Positions 12,178 to 37,712 are shown, counted from the stretch's first letter. The stretch: DNA of 64,000 nucleotides from Bacteroidales bacterium (GCA_029227175.1 JAQXZK010000137.1:7467-71466), one strand, 5' to 3'. Program-made: numbers and translations. Notes: generated by a model from the letters alone, not told the origin.

Positions 12178-12185
12178 TACTTTTG
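12178..12185 (+). promoter_or_regulatory. -7 promoter box immediately upstream of the cobalamin riboswitch
   Basis: TACTTTTG, 3 bp before the riboswitch P1 strand. Confidence 0.7.
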
Positions 12186-12188
12186 CAG

Positions 12189-12388
12189 CGTATTTGGATT
12201 TCAAGTCCACAATGTATGTAACATTGCCGGAGGAGAAACGAAGAGGGAACACAGTGCAAGTCTGTGGCTATACCCGTAGCTGTAAGTTCCATTACAACGT
12301 TGGTGTTGCATTCTGAACGCCACTGAATCCGATAAGGATTTGGGAAGGCGCAACGCCAGGAACGAAGCCAGAAGACCTACCAAATACG
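12189..12388 (+). ncRNA. Cobalamin (B12) riboswitch
   Basis: P1 CGTATTTGG (12189-97) pairs with CCAAATACG (12380-88); AGGGAACACAGTGCAAGTCTGTG, CCCGTAGCTGTAAG, GCCACTG...GGGAAGGC and B12 box AGCCAGAAGACCTACC. Confidence 0.92.
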
Positions 12389-12470
12389 TTTGTTATATTT
12401 GAAACACTTCGGGAAAAAGGTGGTTCGGACACAAAACGTAAATCGTTACATAAAGAGATTGGTGCATAGA

Positions 12471-14873
12471 ATGGCTGTTCACTTCTATGGCAACCATATT
12501 CGTATATCGGTATTATTTCTACTGATGTCGCTCGCCTTTGTAAACACATGGGCGCAGACCCAACCTATCATCTCCGGCAGAGTGACTGATGCGAAAGGCG
12601 CAGTGTTGCCCATGGCTTCCGTTGCAGTAAAAAGCACAAGCACTGGAACATATACCGACGATAAGGGGACATTCACCTTAAACGTAAAACCGGGAGTCCT
12701 TACGTTAATCGTGCAATACATGGGCTTTGAGACAGAAGAAGTGAAAGTTGACGCACGCAAGTCTCAACATCTTGAAATCAGCATGCACGAAAGTGGTTAC
12801 AACCTTGGCGACGTGACAATCACAGCCAAGAGTAACGAACAGAGGTTGCGCGAAGGAGCCTATGCCGTAAATGCGCTCGACATCAAGAGCATCGCAAGCA
12901 GCGTAACGAACCTGAACGAATTGGTGAGCCGCAGCAGTGGCGTTAATCTCCGTACCGACGGAGGTCTTGGCAGCAACTTTGAGTTGTCGCTCAACGGACT
13001 CTCGGGCAATTCCATCCGCTACTTTGTCGATGGCATTCCTCTGACATCAAAAGGGAATGGCGTCAACCTCAGCAACTTCCCCATTAACTCCATCGACCGC
13101 ATTGAGGTCTATAAGGGTGTTGTCCCAAGTTATTTGGGTGGTGACGCGCTGGGCGGTGCCATCAATATCGTAACGAAACAAGAGAAGAAGAATTTCCTCG
13201 ACGCCAGCGTCAGTGTCGGTAGTTTTCATACCTACACCGGCGAAGTCAATGCACAGATTGTCCTGCCCAAGAGTGGTATTCTGGTTCGCCCGCAACTCAA
13301 CATCATACACACGAAGAACGATTATAAGATGCACGATGTAGAGGTCTGGAACGCAGAAACCTCACAATACGAGACCGTCACCCGCAAGCGCTTTCACGAT
13401 GCTTATCACCACTATATGGCGCAAATGGAGGTCGGTGTGGAGAAGAAGAAATGGGCAGATGTCTTCCTCATCGGAGCAAGCTATACAAAGAACGATAAGG
13501 AACTGCAGACAGGAACCATCCAAACCATTGTCTATGGCAAAGCCGAGCGCCAGGAAGAAGCAATCAATCTACAGGCCAAATATACCAAGAAAGACTTCTT
13601 GCTAAAGAATCTCGCCCTGAATCTCTACGCCGGACACACGTGGGATAACAGTGTGACCATTGACACGACCTTCCATCGCTACAACTGGAACGGAGAATCC
13701 AAAGAGACGTCGCGCAACGAACTGACCGGGCGGGAGCGCAGTATGCGCCACTACAAGCGCCCAACCACTATCCTGCGAGGCAATGTGAACTATGTCTTCA
13801 ACGAACACCATTCCCTGAGTTTCAACTACCTGATGAGCAGAACCGGAAATCGGCGTTTCGATACGGCAGACGACTATTACCCCTACTTGAAAGACACTTT
13901 TGAAGAGACGAACGACCTCATTACGCGCCAGACTCTCGGACTTTCCTATGAACAATCATGGATGGACGGGCGATGGGTGAACTCCTTCTTTGTGAAGGAT
14001 TACGTCAATCACGTATCACTGGAGCAGGAAGACATACCCTCTATCACCGGGGCAGACAAAGCGGAGAAGAACGTGACCAAGAACAACGTGGGCGGCGGTA
14101 TCGGTACCCGGTTCACCATCATGGAACCGCTCCACGTCAAGTTGAGCTACGAGCGTGCCGAGAGACTCCCTCTAGCCCGCGAACTGCTTGGAAACGGCTC
14201 TACAACATATCCGAACCTGCTTCTCCGGCCGGAGAAAAGTCACAACGTGAATCTCGGACTGTTTGGGAATATTAAAACCGGGGGAATGAGTCACCTCTAC
14301 TACGAGGTCACGGCCTTCTATCGGAAGGTGACAGACTATATACGTCTACGCGTGAATGACAACGACGGCACGGCGCAATACGAGAACGTGAGTAACGTCA
14401 CGACCAAAGGCATCGAGGGGGAAGTCCGCTACAGCCTTGGGCGATGGCTTCAAACAACCGCCAACGTAAGTTTTCAGGAGAGTCTGGACATGAACGAGTT
14501 TCTGGAGAACGGCAGCACAAGCGCCACCTACAAGAACCGGGTGCCCAACAAGCCCTGGCTGAACAGTAACTTGGACCTGACGCTCACGAAGTACGACCTC
14601 TTCGGTCAGGGCGACCGCCTTCGCTTCAACACCCTGTACCAGTATGTCCACTGGTTTTACCTCTCCTGGGAGGGCTACGGCTATCTGCCCGCCAAAGCGC
14701 GCATTCCCAGTCAGCACATGGTCAACGCTTCGTTGACCTACTCCTGGCACCAAGAGCGATACAGCATTACCGTTTCGTGTGACAACGTGCTGGACAAACT
14801 GGCCTTCGACAACTATAAGCTTCAGAAACCTGGCCGCTCCTTCACTGCCAAGTTCCGCCTATACCTGAGATAA
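12471..14873 (+). CDS. TonB-dependent receptor with N-terminal carboxypeptidase-like domain, riboswitch-controlled
   Basis: Signal peptide from MAVHF (start uncertain); ISGRVTD N-domain; plug motif IDRIEVYKG..GGDALGGAINI; C-terminal PGRSFTAKFRL. Confidence 0.9.
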   Translation: MAVHFYGNHIRISVLFLLMSLAFVNTWAQTQPIISGRVTDAKGAVLPMASVAVKSTSTGTYTDDKGTFTLNVKPGVLTLIVQYMGFETEEVKVDARKSQHLEISMHESGYNLGDVTITAKSNEQRLREGAYAVNALDIKSIASSVTNLNELVSRSSGVNLRTDGGLGSNFELSLNGLSGNSIRYFVDGIPLTSKGNGVNLSNFPINSIDRIEVYKGVVPSYLGGDALGGAINIVTKQEKKNFLDASVSVGSFHTYTGEVNAQIVLPKSGILVRPQLNIIHTKNDYKMHDVEVWNAETSQYETVTRKRFHDAYHHYMAQMEVGVEKKKWADVFLIGASYTKNDKELQTGTIQTIVYGKAERQEEAINLQAKYTKKDFLLKNLALNLYAGHTWDNSVTIDTTFHRYNWNGESKETSRNELTGRERSMRHYKRPTTILRGNVNYVFNEHHSLSFNYLMSRTGNRRFDTADDYYPYLKDTFEETNDLITRQTLGLSYEQSWMDGRWVNSFFVKDYVNHVSLEQEDIPSITGADKAEKNVTKNNVGGGIGTRFTIMEPLHVKLSYERAERLPLARELLGNGSTTYPNLLLRPEKSHNVNLGLFGNIKTGGMSHLYYEVTAFYRKVTDYIRLRVNDNDGTAQYENVSNVTTKGIEGEVRYSLGRWLQTTANVSFQESLDMNEFLENGSTSATYKNRVPNKPWLNSNLDLTLTKYDLFGQGDRLRFNTLYQYVHWFYLSWEGYGYLPAKARIPSQHMVNASLTYSWHQERYSITVSCDNVLDKLAFDNYKLQKPGRSFTAKFRLYLR

Positions 14874-14902
14874 TATTCTTAACGTAAAAAACCATAGCAA
14901 CA

Positions 14903-16540
14903 ATGAAACAAATCAAACTTCTCTCCTGGGCATTCATTGCCATCCTCATGATGGGCATCTCATCATGTAGCGAAGATCTTCCCGAGCCATCCATCGAAGT
15001 TTCACGGGATACGGACAGTAACATCCAGGCATCAGGAGGTTCGTTGAACATCAGCATTAGTGCTAACGTAGACTGGACTGTCAAGTGCGATGCCGATTGG
15101 GTTACAGCCACCCCTTCATCCGGCAGCAACAACGGCACAGTCTCTCTGACCATCGCCGAGAACACCTCCTACGACTCCCGTTCTGCTAAGGTGACCATCA
15201 GCAGCAACGACCCGACAGTCGCCATCATCAAGGAAATCACCATCGCACAAGACGGTAAAGACAAGCCGACCTATCACTTTGACCTCATGGCCTCTGTCGG
15301 CGGAACCACCGGTATGTCTTCATCCGGTGTCACCTCAACCCTCATCCGCAATCTCTCCGTCGACGAAATAGAAGACAACACGAACACCATCTCTTTCAAA
15401 GGTATCGGAGTAGACATACAGGCCGAAATCAATTCCGAGGCCATCATCCACAAAGGCTATTACTACGAGGCTGCCCCGTTGAGCCAGTCTTGGTACGGCA
15501 AATACATCATCAACGACAACAAGCAGGTGAACACCGTAGCCCGATTTGAAATGGGCAAGTCCGTCTTCAAGGCCAAACAGTACACCCATGCCTGGATTGC
15601 AGACAATACCGTTGTGTACATCGGTGCGGACAAATCGGTAAGTAACCGAGGCTCAAACAAAGTGCTGACCAACACCATCCAATGGTCACGCGTGAAGGAC
15701 AACGGTACCACCCTCTCCCTGGAAGCAGAAGGTACCCTCGACCTGACAACGCCGACCAAGGCATTCAAGGAAGGTGGTGTAACAGCATTCTCCACCTCCG
15801 GACTGGCTGCATACCGCCCAAGCGACAACACCCTCATCTATGCGTTTGTTGACAACGACCTCACCGCCGAAACAGCCATAGACGGTGTCTTCATCGCCTT
15901 TATCGACCCCACCAACATGGAAGTAAAGAAGGTCATCTACGACAAGCGTGCCGATACGCTTGCCGGCACAGCTTACGGTGAACTGCAGCAGGACAAGCTC
16001 TTCTTTGACGAAAACGAAGACCTCTACATCGGTGCGGAACTGCTCATCCCGTGTACCAATAGTACCAGCTCAACTCCACAATACGGACGCATTCTCCGCA
16101 TCAAGAAAGGCGCGACCGACACCGACAAGGACTACCTCGGCTTTGCTGACTATCTGAACGGCAAGATACTTTCCATGGACTACCTCGGCAGCGGCAAGAT
16201 TGCCATGACCATGCAAGACCCGCTCAAGACTGGGCTCACCTCTTCTCGCGACTATTACGCTGGGTGGGGACAAAACGACTTGAGCATCTACTACGCCGTT
16301 TATGACATTGCCTCCGGCAAGGTGACCAACTTAGACGATATTCCCTTCTCACTGGGTTCGTTTACCGACCGTGTCGCCGTTGTCAACGGCAAGTGCTACA
16401 TAGCAAGCTGTCCGGACAGCAAAATCAGTGCCCCCTGCATCTACATCTATGACATTGCCTCCGGCAAAATCACCAAAGGTGCCCAAATCGAGGCCGGCTA
16501 TTACATCAATCGCCTGACTGTCGTCGACAACCTTAACTGA
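14903..16540 (+). CDS. Surface lipoprotein: N-terminal BACON domain plus probable beta-propeller (DUF4374-like)
   Basis: Lipobox ISSC followed by acidic SEDLPE; BACON pattern (WTV..DW...P.SG..NG.V...N.....R...T); beta-rich C-terminal ~420 aa. Confidence 0.7.
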   Translation: MKQIKLLSWAFIAILMMGISSCSEDLPEPSIEVSRDTDSNIQASGGSLNISISANVDWTVKCDADWVTATPSSGSNNGTVSLTIAENTSYDSRSAKVTISSNDPTVAIIKEITIAQDGKDKPTYHFDLMASVGGTTGMSSSGVTSTLIRNLSVDEIEDNTNTISFKGIGVDIQAEINSEAIIHKGYYYEAAPLSQSWYGKYIINDNKQVNTVARFEMGKSVFKAKQYTHAWIADNTVVYIGADKSVSNRGSNKVLTNTIQWSRVKDNGTTLSLEAEGTLDLTTPTKAFKEGGVTAFSTSGLAAYRPSDNTLIYAFVDNDLTAETAIDGVFIAFIDPTNMEVKKVIYDKRADTLAGTAYGELQQDKLFFDENEDLYIGAELLIPCTNSTSSTPQYGRILRIKKGATDTDKDYLGFADYLNGKILSMDYLGSGKIAMTMQDPLKTGLTSSRDYYAGWGQNDLSIYYAVYDIASGKVTNLDDIPFSLGSFTDRVAVVNGKCYIASCPDSKISAPCIYIYDIASGKITKGAQIEAGYYINRLTVVDNLN

Positions 16541-16581: not shown

Positions 16582-16620
16582 ATGGCTCTTTGTCCGCATC
16601 CCAAACGGATAAAGAGCCAT
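16582..16620 (+). terminator. Intrinsic terminator-like hairpin after the lipoprotein gene
   Basis: ATGGCTCTTTGTCCG...CGGATAAAGAGCCAT 15-bp stem. Confidence 0.75.
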
Positions 16621-16688
16621 GTGTGTTTTCCTCCCGGCTGTATTGTTTGGTAAAATATTATGACAATCGGCTGACTTTTCAGGAATGG

Positions 16689-16918: not shown

Positions 16919-17473
16919 TCAGATGTCCGACAGCGAAAGCCTATGGCCGGAACACCGGCCTCGCATCATCTTGGGCGTCATGCCCGTCACCTGTTTGAAC
17001 TGTGCAGAAAAATGCGCAGGCGAGCTATACCCTAACTTGTAGGCTATCTCGCTTGTCGAAAGCCGGTTGTAACACAGCAGTTCCTTGGCATACTCGATTC
17101 GGTGAACGATGGCATAGCGCTCAAGCGTGAGGCCTTGTACCTCGCGGAATAGTTTGCTCAACGAACTGTAGTCCCTTCGCAGGCGTTCACACAGATAATC
17201 AGACATTTTGGGTCTCTCGCCATCCATGCGCACCCATTCGATTACCGCGAGCCTCATCTGCTCGACGAGCATGGAACGCGGGTCATCCAGCAGTTCAAAC
17301 CCCATCTCCTCCAGGGATTTGGAGAGCCTTTCCTGCTGCTCCGCCCCCAGTTCCTCCTTGATGTCGGCCATCCCCAAAGTTACCTCTCCGGGAGTGAGAC
17401 CTTCGGAAAGGAGTAGTGTCCTCACCGCCACGATGCAGCGAGGACAAACCATATTCTTGATGTTCAGCCTCAT
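16919..17473 (-). CDS. AraC-family regulator with N-terminal metal-binding CxxC domain
   Basis: IKNMVCPRC; C-terminal EIAYKLGYSSPAHFSAQFKQVTG. Confidence 0.9.
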   Translation of the reverse strand: MRLNIKNMVCPRCIVAVRTLLLSEGLTPGEVTLGMADIKEELGAEQQERLSKSLEEMGFELLDDPRSMLVEQMRLAVIEWVRMDGERPKMSDYLCERLRRDYSSLSKLFREVQGLTLERYAIVHRIEYAKELLCYNRLSTSEIAYKLGYSSPAHFSAQFKQVTGMTPKMMRGRCSGHRLSLSDI

Positions 17474-17788
17474 CTATTTGGAGGTCTTCTTTATATCGTA
17501 ACCTATCTTCTTGAATGCGGCAACAAAGTCCTTATAGGTCGCCTTCCTGCCGTCATAAACGATCGTGACCGACTGTTTGGCAAGGGAAGTCTCTATTTTC
17601 TTTGTCCCCTTTACGAAGCGTATGTTACGCTTGATTTTCTGCTCACATCCCTGGCAGTGCATCTGCGGGGTCGTGGTCACGACAAGTGTATCTGCCTTTG
17701 TCTGTGCGAACGCGCAGAGTGCGCACATCGCCAAAAGTACTGTTGAAATCGTCTTCTTCATACCATTCTGTTTTTTAAATCTTCTCAA
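17474..17788 (-). CDS. Exported heavy-metal-associated (HMA) domain protein
   Basis: Signal peptide; MHCQGC metal-binding motif. Confidence 0.88.
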   Translation of the reverse strand: MRRFKKQNGMKKTISTVLLAMCALCAFAQTKADTLVVTTTPQMHCQGCEQKIKRNIRFVKGTKKIETSLAKQSVTIVYDGRKATYKDFVAAFKKIGYDIKKTSK

Positions 17789-19769
17789 ACCTTAATCTTA
17801 CCCCTATATACGCCATGGCTCCCGCTATTGGCCCCCAGACCTGTGTGGCGTCAAAAGACTGCGACCACGGCTGGTGAGCATGCATGATGGGGTCTTGAAT
17901 CCTGTAATTTGTCAGGTTCTCGCCACCGAGATAGATACTGACGTGACGAAACTCACGGGTAACCTGTAACTGTAACTGGAAGTAAGCCGGGTATTTGGCT
18001 CTGTTATACAACACGCCCCCTCCGTTGAGCTGTCCGGTGAGGTCAAACTGCCACAGCTCCGTCGGAGTCTTGTAAGAGAGTGTCAGCAATCCCTTGTAGC
18101 GGGAAGTCAGGGGTTTCTGCCTGAGTTCTCCCCCATACGTACATTTAACGTCGTTCAGACGGAAGGCACCGGTGGCGGTGAATCCCTCAAAGAAAGGATA
18201 CGTCGCGTCAACCTGCAAGGTGTGGCTGTAACTCTTGCCACTCAGATTTCCAAACGTCAGGAAAAGGCCATCCTGCCCGTCACGAGGAGAGGTGTTTGTA
18301 TAGTCGATAACCAGCTGATTCTTGAAATCCGTGTAGTAATACTCGGCATTCAGTTCCAGATTCCGATTACGTATCGGGATGTTGAGGCCCGCCGAAAGAC
18401 CCATGTTCCAGGCTTCTTCCTGCTTCAGGTCTGATGCAAAGACAACCCGACGGCCACTTGCCAGCAAAGTGGTGTTTTCGGCCAGCGCGTGAGGCGTCCG
18501 ATAACCCTTTCCTGCCGAGGCGCGAAGTGTGAGCTTGTCGAGCGGAGAATACTTTATGTGCAGGCGGGGAGTAAGGAAACCTCCATGCAGTGTAGAGTAA
18601 TCCCAGCGAATACCGGGCATGACCGTCAGTCTCTCTCCAAGTTTGTAGGTATACTGAGCATAGACACCTGATGTCGTTTCCTTGTTTCCACCCGGCAGGG
18701 GGAGCTCAAGAGAACTTCGTTCGTCATAATAATCATGGTTAAGAGACGCTCCAACGCTTAAATTGTGCTCGTCCGTGAGGTCTGTCTCAAACATCAACTG
18801 CGCATAGCCGTTCTTTTGTGTCACATCATACTGCGTGAGTCCGAAGGTGTTCCAGCCATCATGCCACGAGCCCTGAAGCATCAAGGCAAGCGAGGTGTTA
18901 TGGTCCGCGTCCAGCGTCCAGCCGTTCTTCCACTGCACCTCATAGCGGTTGGTCTTCACGGAAGTGGTGTATGGCGTTCCACCCGCATCCGCCAGATGCT
19001 TCGCGCCCTGTCCGCCAATGCGCTCGTCACGCAGCACCCTCATGGACAACTGACTTATCCAAAGAGGAGACACATAAGCCCAGCGATGCATGAGGTTATA
19101 CTGTCTAATTTTGGGCATATCCATAAATCCGTCACCATTGCCATCATGCTCCGTCTGACGGTTTTCAAAATGCAGGAGTGTCGCCGTTGAGAGGCGGTCG
19201 TTGAGATGAATGCTTCCATCCACATTGACCTCCTGCTTCCATTCGCTGTCCAGATAGGCATTGGCGCGCACACCGTCTGTCGCCTGCGGCTTCAGGAACT
19301 CAATATTGATCTGTCCCGTCGTACTCTCGTAACCGTTCTTCACACTGGAAGCGCCCTTGCTCACCTGGATAGACTGCATCCAGGGACCGGGAACATAGCC
19401 GAGGGCATAGGGCAGTGACGCTCCACGCAGATTCGGGACATTCTCCGTCAACATCTGCACGTAAGTACCTGAGAGCCCAAGAAGCTTAATCTGTCTGGCA
19501 CCGGTCGCAGCATCGCTGTAACTGACATCGACCGAAGGATTTGTCGTGAACGACTCGCCCAAATTACAACATGCGGCCCGAATCAGCTGACTCTTCCCAA
19601 TAATATCCACACTCTCCACCCTCGACTGTGAGCGGGTACGCGAACTGACCCTGACCACAACATCCTTCAACTCATACTCATTGGCTATGCTGTCTGCCGA
19701 TTCCACCACCTGCGCGACAACGCCGGGCGGTACACATAGAGCCCAGATGATGGCAAGCACTACTTTCAT
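17775..19769 (-). CDS. TonB-dependent receptor of the metal-locus type
   Basis: RAACCNLGESF plug motif; C-terminal YIGVRL; start MKVV or MIRR (19787); -7 box TACTTTTG at 19816-19823 argues against the 19835 start. Confidence 0.88.
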   Translation of the reverse strand: MKVVLAIIWALCVPPGVVAQVVESADSIANEYELKDVVVRVSSRTRSQSRVESVDIIGKSQLIRAACCNLGESFTTNPSVDVSYSDAATGARQIKLLGLSGTYVQMLTENVPNLRGASLPYALGYVPGPWMQSIQVSKGASSVKNGYESTTGQINIEFLKPQATDGVRANAYLDSEWKQEVNVDGSIHLNDRLSTATLLHFENRQTEHDGNGDGFMDMPKIRQYNLMHRWAYVSPLWISQLSMRVLRDERIGGQGAKHLADAGGTPYTTSVKTNRYEVQWKNGWTLDADHNTSLALMLQGSWHDGWNTFGLTQYDVTQKNGYAQLMFETDLTDEHNLSVGASLNHDYYDERSSLELPLPGGNKETTSGVYAQYTYKLGERLTVMPGIRWDYSTLHGGFLTPRLHIKYSPLDKLTLRASAGKGYRTPHALAENTTLLASGRRVVFASDLKQEEAWNMGLSAGLNIPIRNRNLELNAEYYYTDFKNQLVIDYTNTSPRDGQDGLFLTFGNLSGKSYSHTLQVDATYPFFEGFTATGAFRLNDVKCTYGGELRQKPLTSRYKGLLTLSYKTPTELWQFDLTGQLNGGGVLYNRAKYPAYFQLQLQVTREFRHVSIYLGGENLTNYRIQDPIMHAHQPWSQSFDATQVWGPIAGAMAYIGVRLRFEKI

Positions 19770-20000
19770 TCCTTCTCTTCTTATCATAAATATACATTGC
19801 TTTGTCTTACGGATACAAAAGTAGGCATAAATCACGACTCCTTTCTATCATAATTATGGATTAAACTTATAACCGACACACATTTTATGATAGGCACACG
19901 CGCAAACATAGGTAATTCCTTCCGAAATCCAGGTAGTAAGCCTCTTGCTCTTTCTTCATTCCTTTGCAATCGAAAACAACATTCAATTATTATACATAAG

Positions 20001-34182: not shown

Positions 34183-34196
34183 CGGCCAAGAAACGA

Positions 34197-34252
34197 CGGG
34201 TGGAAAGATTTGAGTCGCTTGCAACCACCGAAAAAAATGCTAAAACACACTT
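34197..34252 (+). ncRNA. SAM-II-class riboswitch candidate upstream of metK
   Basis: P1 GGTGG/CCACC enclosing GATTT...TTGCAA, followed by AAAT-GCTAAAA: the SAM-II core (UUGC pairing with GC(U)AA); logical downstream gene. Confidence 0.75.
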
Positions 34253-34354
34253 CCTTTCTGCATTTTGAAGCAGGTGTCCCTACTTGCATCGAATCTCCCC
34301 CAAGTTTCTGAACGTAAACTTAACTTATTCACTAACCCAAACGATTGTTTTGTA

Positions 34355-35647
34355 ATGGGATACTTATTTACTTCCGAATCTGTGTCTGAAGGACATCCAG
34401 ACAAAGTTGCCGATCAGATTTCTGATGCGGTATTGGATAAAATCATTGCCTATGACCCACAGGCAAAGGTTGCATGTGAAACACTGGTAACAACAGGTCA
34501 AGTTGTATTAGCTGGCGAAATAAAGACGAAAGCTTATGTAGACCTGCAGCTCATTGCACGCGAAGTCATTGAGAAAATTGGCTACACGAAAGGCGAATAT
34601 ATGTTTGAAAGCAACTCATGTGGTGTACTGAGTGCTATCCACGAGCAAAGCGCAGACATCAATCGAGGCGTGGAACGTGAAGACCCCATCAATCAGGGAG
34701 CGGGCGACCAGGGCATGATGTTCGGCTATGCAACAAATGAAACAGAAAACTACATGCCGCTGTCTCTTTTCCTGGCACACCGGATTCTTGAAGTTCTGGC
34801 CGACATCCGCCGCGAACAGAAAGAAATGACCTATCTTCGTCCTGACTCCAAATCACAGGTCACGATTGAATACAACGATGACAACAAGCCTGTAAGAATA
34901 GATACTATTGTCGTATCTACGCAGCATGATGACTTTATCAAACCGGCCGATGGCAGCAAAGAAGCACAAGAAAAAGCAGACAGCGAAATGCTCAACATCA
35001 TCAGCCGTGACGTACAAGAGATTCTTATTCCGCGCGTAATCCGTTCTATACACAGCGAGAAAGTAATCGGCCTTTTTAATGAAAACATCAAATACCACGT
35101 CAATCCTACCGGAAAATTTGTAATTGGCGGACCTCACGGAGATACCGGTCTGACCGGCCGCAAAATTATCGTCGATACCTATGGTGGTAAAGGCGCGCAT
35201 GGCGGCGGTGCATTCTCGGGCAAAGACCCATCTAAAGTTGACCGAAGCGCAGCATACGCAGCCCGCCATATTGCCAAGAACCTTGTGGCAGCAGGTGTTG
35301 CAGATGAAATGCTTATCCAAATCAGCTATGCAATCGGTGTTGCCGAACCGGTAAGCATCTACGTTAATACCTATGGAACAAGTCACGTCAATCTGTCTGA
35401 TGGAGAAATCGCTGACAAAATCAAGACGCTATTCGACCTCCGTCCTAAAGCGATTGAGGAACGTCTGAAATTGAGAAATCCCATCTACCTCGAAACAGCG
35501 GCTTACGGACACATGGGTAGAGAACCGCAAACAGTAACCAAGAAATATACCTCCCGTTACGAAGGCACAAAAGAAATTGTCGTTGAGCTCTTTACCTGGG
35601 AGAAATTAGATTATGTAGACAAAGTTAAAGAAGCCTTTGGCCTCTGA
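34355..35647 (+). CDS. metK: S-adenosylmethionine synthetase
   Basis: [13 protein letters not shown]; GAGDQG; [16 protein letters not shown]. Confidence 0.98.
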
Positions 35648-36965: not shown

Positions 36966-37712
36966 TTGGAAATCAAAAAGATTCTGGTTTCGCAGCCAAA
37001 ACCGACTACAGAAAAATCTCCTTACTTTGACATCGCAAACAAATACAACGTTGAAATCGTTTTCCGACCGTTCATCAAGGTAGAGAGACTGACATCTAAA
37101 GAATTTCGTCAGCAACACATTTCTGTATTGGATCACACAGCCGTAGTCTTTACCTCACGCCATGCCATTGACCACTTCTTCAACCTATGTGCAGACCTTC
37201 GGCTCACCATTCCTGAGACTATGAAATATTTCTGTACCTCAGAAAGCATTGCGTTGTATATCCAGAAATATGTCCAATATCGTAAGCGCAAAGTCTTCTT
37301 TGGAGCAACAGGCAAGATTGAAGACCTTGTTCCCTGTATGGTAAAGCATAAGGTAGAGAACTATCTCATTCCGATGAGTGACGTGCACAATGACGATACC
37401 AAGAACCTTTTAGACAAGCACAAACTACGCCATACCGAATGCGTCATGTACCGTACCGTCAGCAATGACTTTACACCGGAGGAAGCATTTGACTATGACA
37501 TGCTCATTTTCTTCAGTCCGGCCGGAATCGCTTCTTTAAAAAAGAATTTCCCAGACTTTGAACAGAAAAAGATTGCCATTGGTACATTTGGCTCCATCAC
37601 AGCTCAGGCAGCCATCAATGCCGGTCTGCATCTTGACATTCAAGCCCCGAATCCTGAGGCTCCATCAATGACTGCAGCTCTGGAGCAATTCCTAAAGGCA
37701 CAAAAGAAGTAA
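36966..37712 (+). CDS. hemD: Uroporphyrinogen-III synthase (Bacteroidetes type)
   Basis: TTG start; KILVSQPKP..SPYF; FRPFIKVE; YRTVSND; FFSPAG. Confidence 0.85.
   Translation: MEIKKILVSQPKPTTEKSPYFDIANKYNVEIVFRPFIKVERLTSKEFRQQHISVLDHTAVVFTSRHAIDHFFNLCADLRLTIPETMKYFCTSESIALYIQKYVQYRKRKVFFGATGKIEDLVPCMVKHKVENYLIPMSDVHNDDTKNLLDKHKLRHTECVMYRTVSNDFTPEEAFDYDMLIFFSPAGIASLKKNFPDFEQKKIAIGTFGSITAQAAINAGLHLDIQAPNPEAPSMTAALEQFLKAQKK

Follow-up and report, generated by a model that had tools for sequence, protein, structure and literature searches.

Work on Bacteroides has centred on scavenging of the BtuBG type by auxotrophs, and a related arrangement of outer-membrane receptor and lipoprotein is known from iron piracy, in the XusABC system of Bacteroides thetaiotaomicron (BT2065/BT2064/BT2063). 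In this study, we describe a two-gene unit encoding a XusA-type receptor and a XusB-type lipoprotein behind a cobalamin riboswitch. It lies in a stretch of 64,000 nucleotides (JAQXZK010000137.1:7467-71466, below referred to as the window) from a Bacteroidales metagenome-assembled genome (MAG; GCA_029227175.1) of 2.88 Mb in 232 contigs, which is 92% complete. A Xus-type transporter pair within the cobalamin regulon is what is new here. The unit is probably a Xus-type module for import across the outer membrane which is repressed by cobamide and serves the cell's own corrin synthesis, and not iron acquisition or ordinary B12 scavenging.

The unit resembles XusABC in the receptor-then-lipoprotein order, the CarboxypepD_reg-like N-terminal domain of the receptor and the DUF4374 propeller of the lipoprotein, and a PepSY_TM partner accompanies the pair in several of its relatives. 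The best alignment of the lipoprotein is with XusB of B. fragilis (9HQE/9HQK, 414 residues), described by its authors as short, hookless and ferrichrome-binding (PMC13142918). However, the clade of the window lipoprotein is separate and has a cobalamin riboswitch, which none of the eight classic genes has, and the window unit adds a BACON domain and has no PepSY gene in the operon. In relatives, CbiK, a CobN-like protein, BtuFCD and cbi genes stand beside the pair.

With BtuB-BtuG the unit shares a riboswitch-controlled receptor and a surface propeller lipoprotein, presumably acting as a lid, while BtuK of B. thetaiotaomicron is alike in combining an Ig-like (PKD) N-terminal domain with a seven-bladed propeller (PMC13616437). 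Nevertheless, homology of the pair to BtuB is limited to the plug, and there is none to BtuG, BtuH or BtuK. Moreover, the Btu system serves auxotrophs, whereas the window module is missing from genomes without ring synthesis in a sample of the window's order.

The Hmu system (HmuY-HmuR-HmuS-T-U-V) is similar in that a surface binder and a TonB receptor feed a metallo-tetrapyrrole to a periplasmic, membrane-anchored enzyme of the CobN family, and ExbB-like and DUF2149 partners occur in two relatives of the window locus (L009 and L010; loci, genomes and contigs are given as L, G and C numbers). In contrast to Hmu, the window-type binder is a XusB propeller and not HmuY, the receptor is XusA-type and not HmuR, neither the window nor the assembled genome has the CobN-like module, and the regulation would be by cobamide and not by iron or heme.

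The salvagers described by Shelton et al. keep the corrin ring pathway but lack the steps to precorrin-2, as do most carriers of the window module. This class, of which Porphyromonas gingivalis is an early example, is recognised by its missing enzymes and has no identified uptake route; only aminolevulinate salvage has been validated, in Firmicutes and Treponema (PMC6461909). Unlike that study, which proposed no uptake system, the present analysis offers a candidate outer-membrane route tied to the class in Bacteroidales.

Organisation of the riboswitch-controlled unit

The unit and its parts are the following (positions in the window):

12178..12185, plus strand: promoter box TAnnTTTG, TACTTTTG (alignment of homologous loci)
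12178..12398, plus strand: cobalamin riboswitch aptamer, RF00174 (covariance model, full-length match)
12399..12470, plus strand: leader or expression platform, between the aptamer and the receptor ATG
12471..14873, plus strand: XusA-type TonB-dependent receptor, 800 aa (Pfam domains, XusA homology)
14903..16540, plus strand: lipoprotein, 545 aa (translation, Pfam, PDB profile and fold searches)
15023..15250, plus strand: BACON (Ig-like) domain of the lipoprotein, residues 41-116 (Pfam)
15272..16537, plus strand: beta-propeller of the lipoprotein, divergent DUF4374, residues about 124-545 (profile and fold)
16582..16629, plus strand: intrinsic terminator-like hairpin with a U-rich tail (folding)

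The Rfam Cobalamin covariance model RF00174 matched the aptamer at model positions 1-189 with a score of 91.5 bits (E 2e-21), far above its gathering score of 31.5 bits, so that the riboswitch called in an earlier note on this DNA is confirmed. It is the sole match of the model in the genome when all 232 contigs are scanned, and 19 further loci carry RF00174 at the equivalent position with 82-111 bits. Just ahead of the aptamer, nine aligned homologous loci all share the nucleotides T9, A10 and T13-G16; we take the resulting box TAnnTTTG to be a -7 promoter element of the Bacteroidota type, by the Bacteroides consensus. A conserved element, CTTCGGGnAnAnAG, follows 3' of the aptamer in the aligned loci. 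The distance from the aptamer end to the receptor start is 72 nt, and folding of this leader gave no significant expression-platform structure (z -0.42).

The receptor reading frame is open from a TTG at 12390, with the ATG at 12471 as the likely start, and its product has a signal peptide ending in TWA/Q followed by CarbopepD_reg_2, Plug and TonB barrel domains (Pfam). The closest solved relative is XusA (9gbc_A; 9GBC is B. thetaiotaomicron XusA-XusB according to its depositors), matched with 370 bits over residues 16-799 against 11-793, and the NCBIfam model MxcH of the myxochelin receptor is matched over the full length with 476 bits. The scores against the BtuB models are far below their cut-offs (TIGR01779, 101 against 599.7 bits; PRK10641, 69 against 836). 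In PDB searches E. coli BtuB aligned to the plug only (45 bits), and B. thetaiotaomicron BtuB1 (8blw) was not among the matches. As expected of a XusA-type receptor, the gene of a lipoprotein with the DUF4374 fold adjoins it, 29 nt downstream. The earlier assignment of the receptor to the Xus type rather than to BtuB is thus well founded on the full-length XusA match and the low BtuB scores.

The lipoprotein has a lipobox at Cys22 (GISSC22) and then an acidic export motif, SEDLPEP, from which it is predicted to be exposed on the cell surface. The BACON domain is recognised by PF13004 (45 bits) and PF19190 (46 bits), and the region also aligns with the BACON domains in solved structures of GH16 and sulfatase proteins. 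The C-terminal 420 residues gave no Pfam match in hmmscan even at E<=1, including the DUF4374 family PF14298, although PF14298 matches are precomputed for homologues of the protein in a large database. A profile built from 56 homologues found B. fragilis XusB in the PDB (9hqe, E 1.4e-11), as well as B. thetaiotaomicron XusB (9gbc_B, E 1.3e-7) and the DUF4374 structure 8gex. The structure prediction that the earlier note had proposed agrees: the AlphaFold model, built on the homologue alignment, is confident (pLDDT 90.3, pTM 0.83) and is a propeller whose top Foldseek match is B. fragilis XusB with ferrichrome (9hqk, E 2e-16, TM 0.76).

The relation to BtuG was addressed through sequence, profile and fold searches of the PDB with the window lipoprotein. 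No sequence homology to BtuG was found in the single-protein or profile searches, and BtuG appears among the fold matches as a generic propeller (E 4e-7 to 9e-6, TM about 0.6, 10% identity). The BtuH and BtuK families had no match in the PDB sequence or profile searches, and the best 50 fold matches contained neither 4R5O, 9S6C nor entries labelled BtuH or BtuK. Neither protein of the pair therefore falls within BtuB, BtuG, BtuH or BtuK in the family and PDB searches. The earlier note had described the lipoprotein as no obvious BtuG or BtuH and as carrying a BACON domain, and both points hold; what has to be amended is the nature of the partner, which by profile and by fold is a divergent propeller of the XusB/DUF4374 kind.

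The ferrichrome-contact residues of B. fragilis XusB, taken from PMC13142918, are W323, D352-G354 and F398, and they align to W455, S486-T488 and Y533 of the window protein. W455 is invariant in eight close relatives and F487 is nearly invariant across the family; S486, T488 and Y533 are unconserved, and the neighbouring G485, G532 and Y534 are conserved. Because W455, F487 and these flanking residues are kept, a portion of the canonical DUF4374 pocket looks to be retained in the window lipoprotein.

Ig-like N-terminal additions occur as BACON in the window protein and in L009-L012, and as Big_2 in an orthologous lipoprotein of genome G140 (L060:6072-7733), where it occupies the position of BACON in the window protein; the Ig-like spacer was therefore gained independently. 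The earlier idea of a stalk that raises the binding domain above the capsule gains some plausibility from this second domain at the equivalent site in another branch.

The family is large: a single member matches over 1067 clusters (90% identity) at E<=1e-30, and the named entries among the 120 best matches are all 'hypothetical protein' from uncultured Bacteroidales. A full-text literature search returned nothing that links DUF4374 or XusB to cobalamin, and DUF4374 is seldom mentioned (in eight papers altogether).

The 3' end of the unit is marked by a hairpin at 16582-16620 with 15 bp, a loop of 9 nt and a dG of -24.1 kcal/mol (z -6.5); none of 200 shuffles folded as well, and the tail sequence is GUGUGUUUU. 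No PepSY or BtuFCD gene lies 3' of the pair in the window, so that the PepSY_TM component (XusC) of XusABC is absent here. The hairpin and the opposite-strand neighbours agree with the two-gene unit closed by a terminator, without PepSY or BtuFCD, that the earlier note had drawn.

Conservation of the riboswitch linkage

A same-strand RF00174 aptamer stands directly upstream in 20 of the 21 informative loci of the lipoprotein clade. Ten loci come from species-representative genomes, which are Bacteroidaceae-like MAGs from rumen, buffalo, sheep and horse faeces, and encode lipoproteins 47-70% identical to that of the window; RF00174 (82-111 bits) lies just before the receptor in nine of nine, the tenth locus being left out of the informative count as it ends at a contig edge. 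The six metagenome loci all have the riboswitch, with a lipoprotein identity of merely 30-42%. Among 301 genomes drawn evenly from the window's order, five gave strong matches to the family profile (>450 bits), including the window's own genome, and in each of the other four a same-strand riboswitch is located 2.5-2.9 kb upstream.

Weak profile matches (43-59 bits) in seven further genomes of this sample are classic receptor-DUF4374-PepSY loci. No riboswitch was found near any of their eight lipoprotein genes (0/8 in seven XusA-XusB-PepSY loci). In the maximum-likelihood tree of the lipoproteins the eight classic proteins are set apart (SH-aLRT 97) from a clade of 22 members that includes all 20 riboswitch-linked proteins, and the association of linkage with clade (20/0 against 0/8) gives a Fisher P=3e-7 with kinship ignored.

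A chance juxtaposition of riboswitch and pair is rejected because 20 of 21 loci keep the linkage. The reading as a classic iron Xus locus is likewise rejected, on account of the riboswitch, the distinct clade and the cbi genes of the neighbourhoods. The recruitment of an iron-piracy scaffold to the cobalamin regulon, which the earlier note had suggested from one locus, is borne out by this conservation.

Corrin pathway of the source genome and distribution of the module

The window genome encodes MetH and methylmalonyl-CoA mutase, and its corrin set comprises CbiL, H, F, G, D, J, E/T, C, A, P and B. The ring genes are fused on contig C34 (CbiH-CbiC, CbiET, CbiJ-CbiD and CbiG-CbiF), CbiA, CbiB, CobD and CbiP are also encoded, and BtuF is interrupted by a contig end. 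Six TP_methylase matches correspond to three cbi fusions, one CbiL-like and two RsmI-like open reading frames (ORFs), the last three assigned by eye from sequence; none of the six is a uroporphyrinogen methyltransferase. The two RsmI-like ORFs lie at C23:4110-4883 and C42:3055-3384, one of them at the end of a short contig, and such duplicates may reflect strain mixture or slight contamination of the MAG.

HemC was not found in the genome, uroporphyrinogen-III methyltransferase (SUMT) gave no TIGR01469 match above the cut-off, and neither a CobN-like gene nor a clear BtuC was detected. No BtuB orthologue stands out, the best receptor in the genome scoring 81 bits to TIGR01779 and 56 bits to B. 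thetaiotaomicron BtuB1. With CbiD and the cbi fusions present and HemC and SUMT not found, the genome, as far as a MAG of 92% completeness can be read, fits the salvager class. A HemD-like gene (HEM4, 105 bits) is present in the window at 36966-37712, adjoining a DUF4271 gene, despite the absence of HemC and SUMT. P. gingivalis has been reported to retain HemD with just three other enzymes of the heme pathway.

A paralogous locus at C108:24030-30294 encodes PepSY_TM, a receptor (860 bits to the window receptor), a lipoprotein of 432 aa without BACON, and a CbiK with a signal peptide. A profile of exported CbiK proteins found its sole match in the genome there. No riboswitch was found at this pair, which is preceded by a promoter region of 110 nt and, before that, by a GC-rich ORF that has no relation to it, and C108 is the single exception among the 21 clade loci.

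Of the 301 genomes in the order sample, 19 encode CbiD, and these include all five module carriers (Fisher P=5.8e-7, or 9e-6 without the window genome). None of the 282 CbiD-negative genomes of the sample carries the module; scavenging of finished B12, an auxotroph need, is therefore hard to reconcile with its distribution. Among the MAG carriers nine of ten are CbiD-positive.

HemC and SUMT either co-occur or are co-absent across 29 tested genomes. Both are missing above the cut-off from 14 of 15 carriers, including the closed genome G039 (one contig, 100% complete) as well as G283 (97%) and G140 (99%), and both are present in 8 of 14 CbiD-positive non-carriers. Because 14 of the 15 lack these enzymes, the carriers appear mostly to be tetrapyrrole-precursor salvagers.

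Gene neighbourhoods in relatives

The closest relatives, L009 and L010, have 70% identity to the window and the BACON domain. Their pair is followed by genes for a CobN-Mg_chel protein of 1261 aa that is anchored in the membrane, a small membrane protein, MotA_ExbB and DUF2149, an arrangement of partners that matches the HmuS-T-U-V order of the heme de-chelation system (PMC12583661). The arrangement is also of the 'BtuS' type, for which PMC6460266 cites a proposal of metalloporphyrin salvage by Rodionov.

PepSY_TM and a signal-peptide CbiK come after the pair in L011 and L012, with cbiH/C-cbiET-cbiG directly next. The neighbours in L053 include CbiK, a CobN-like protein and BtuFCD. Upstream of the L056 pair lie CbiK, a CobN-like protein, ExbB and DUF2149, and downstream of it CbiA and BtuFCD, with cbiB-cobD-cbiP on the opposite strand. 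The order in L058 is cbiJD, riboswitch, pair, PepSY, CbiK, BtuFCD. PepSY_TM accompanies the pair in L011, L012, L054 and L058, and also at C108. Bare two-gene units are common too (L013, L014, L018, L049, L055, L057, L059 and L060). The absence of PepSY and BtuFCD stated in the earlier note is thus right for the window but not for its relatives, where PepSY, BtuFCD, CbiK and CobN-like proteins accompany the pair.

Every module-adjacent CbiK has a signal peptide (C108:24030-24854, L011:9221-10036, L012:9209-10024, L017:1390-2214 and L058:3701-4573), which is retained even where the gene stands directly before cbiH/C in a cbi operon. As these proteins and the only CbiK of the window genome carry signal peptides, cobalt insertion in these bacteria may be periplasmic.

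The relatives have 2-5 cobalamin riboswitches per genome. A second riboswitch-controlled receptor type, with the motif 'VVVTGTGT...', was considered as a canonical BtuB and rejected, its best PDB match being the CirA plug (115 bits). At L068:425-3662 the gene after this receptor encodes a CbiK-like protein of 361 aa, an arrangement reminiscent of IhtA/IhtB of P. gingivalis, and at L069:391-4201 a third riboswitch-controlled type, resembling siderophore receptors, is followed by PepSY_TM. Neither of these receptors is similar to B. thetaiotaomicron BtuB1, and the entire cobalamin regulon here looks like metal-chelate or tetrapyrrole uptake.

Proposed function and alternative explanations

Whereas the riboswitch, the protein families and fold, the conserved linkage, the neighbourhoods and the co-occurrence are observations, the scheme that we infer, from the direction of regulation and the surface exposure to the lid function, the cargo and all periplasmic steps, is as follows. 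At low intracellular cobamide the riboswitch would permit expression of both genes. The lipoprotein would be exported to the surface, held there on its BACON spacer, and would capture the ligand in the propeller pocket. It would then cap the XusA-like barrel as a lid, and TonB energy would drive the ligand into the periplasm. Cobalt could be inserted or exchanged there, aided in relatives by the PepSY reductase and the CobN/HmuS-like protein, after which the cobalt-tetrapyrrole would cross the inner membrane in a BtuFCD-like manner and join the pathway at CbiL.

For the cargo, we put forward tentatively, as the likeliest single candidate, an exogenous tetrapyrrole at about the level of sirohydrochlorin or precorrin-2, either as the free base or metal-loaded, e.g., siroheme. 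A cargo of this level is suggested because the pathway of the carriers begins at CbiL and the sole cobaltochelatase is exported. It is also suggested by the accessory reductase, the homologue of a CobN de-chelatase and the exported chelatase, with an ABC importer for organic chelates often adjacent. XusB-fold proteins have one conserved pocket with differing ligands (PMC13142918). The fuller picture, in which the pair is the outer-membrane entry for piracy of tetrapyrrole precursors by Bacteroidales that have lost HemC and SUMT, with rings released by other microbes, loaded with cobalt in the periplasm and fed into a truncated cbi pathway, is possible and is offered more cautiously still.

Several observations weigh against the proposed function and cargo. 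The association of carriage with the absence of HemC and SUMT has a Fisher P=0.005, but with kinship ignored, and the ten MAG carriers are interrelated. In the order sample alone the contrast is small, the module being present in 1 of 9 complete and 4 of 10 truncated producers. Carrier G180 has both HemC and SUMT, so the module is not exclusive to truncated producers, and six truncated producers do without it, so it is not necessary to them. The absences noted in the window genome (HemC, SUMT, BtuC, BtuB-like and CobN-like) are provisional at 92% completeness, and the C108 lipoprotein falls inside the riboswitch-linked clade of the tree while its locus has no riboswitch. A cargo of cobalt only or of incomplete corrinoids would equally explain the restriction to CbiD-positive genomes, and BtuFCD adjacency together with riboswitch control is also expected of a corrinoid importer. 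Finally, neither sirohydrochlorin nor siroheme is known as a free extracellular nutrient.

Corrinoid capture is the first alternative: the pair would be a functional analogue of BtuB-BtuG which imports cobamides, cobinamide or incomplete corrinoids and passes them to BtuFCD for use or remodelling. TonB receptors under riboswitch control classically import B12, a BtuF homologue is present in the genome though no BtuB orthologue stands out, and BtuFCD follows the pair in L053, L056 and L058. Moreover, the propeller lipoproteins BtuG and BtuK1, the latter with an Ig-like N-terminus, bind B12 (PMC13616437). We nevertheless consider this explanation unlikely, if still a live rival. The 282 CbiD-negative genomes, which are the corrinoid-dependent ones, are without the module, and importing a finished cobamide would call for neither a CbiK in the periplasm nor a CobN-like protein nor a PepSY reductase. 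The propeller is also much nearer to B. fragilis XusB than to BtuG (E 2e-16 against about 4e-7), and the lipoprotein has no sequence relation to BtuG, BtuH or BtuK.

Alternatively, the pair could import cobalt as a chelate with a siderophore-like or other organic ligand, from which the PepSY reductase and/or the CobN-like protein would free periplasmic Co(II) for CbiK or a transporter. The receptor and the fold are of the metal-siderophore type, nearest to the hydroxamate-binding B. fragilis XusB, and a PepSY_TM protein of the FoxB/XusC reductase type stands beside the pair in the five loci named above. Cobalt would be useful solely to cells with corrin-ring genes, which fits the CbiD-positive restriction, and cobalt transporters are reportedly often under B12 riboswitches (Rodionov et al., 2003). 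However, the import of a cobalt chelate leaves unexplained the bias of the carriers towards HemC/SUMT-negative genomes, the export of the sole cobaltochelatase and the adjacency of cbiA and of organic-chelate importers of the BtuFCD type. A cobalt-specific chelator is also not known from these habitats, and on balance we regard this explanation as about as unlikely as corrinoid capture.

That the pair imports iron, as a xenosiderophore, or heme, and has come under B12 control through some indirect physiological link, is very improbable. Characterised members of the family do import ferric siderophores (PMC13142918), and the CobN-like BtuS1 of B. fragilis, from the B12-regulated BtuS family, aids heme-iron assimilation (PMC6460266). 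However, a cobalamin riboswitch controls 20 of the 21 loci, in a clade distinct from the riboswitch-free classic XusABC loci. The module also lies amid cbi and btu genes, is confined within the order sample to CbiD-positive genomes, and showed no Fur-type context.

The hypothesis of the earlier note, an iron-scavenging scaffold repurposed for B12, cobamide or cobalt, was thus right in outline. By the distribution of CbiD and of HemC/SUMT, its emphasis on corrinoid capture turned out to be the weaker branch, and its cobalt branch is a live rival to precursor piracy.

Other features of the window and its relatives

Downstream of the unit, and convergent to it, are two genes:

16919-17473, minus strand: AraC-type regulator
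17775-19835, minus strand: TonB receptor of 685 aa without a close solved relative

No connection of either gene with the riboswitch-controlled pair was found. Elsewhere in the window, at 34194-34253, a SAM-II riboswitch (61.7 bits) lies directly 5' of an S-adenosylmethionine synthetase gene (34265-35647) and is ordinary-looking.

In three loci of the relatives (L034, L035 and L038, in G010, G005 and G006, respectively) a cobalamin riboswitch stands about 45 nt before a gene whose product has the N-terminus MIRKILVANRGEIAIR. Judged by eye from this N-terminus, the product looks like the biotin carboxylase of an acyl-CoA carboxylase. Such a gene would be an unusual riboswitch target, possibly linked to the B12-dependent propionate pathway.

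Significance

The availability of cobamides shapes the communities of gut and rumen, and the B12 status of ruminants depends on rumen producers. The pairs described here offer a concrete candidate for how precursor salvagers obtain the ring and/or cobalt. If the proposed function is true, the XusB fold reaches beyond siderophores, and a piracy route would account for the long-standing puzzle of precursor-less corrin pathways, e.g., that of Porphyromonas gingivalis.

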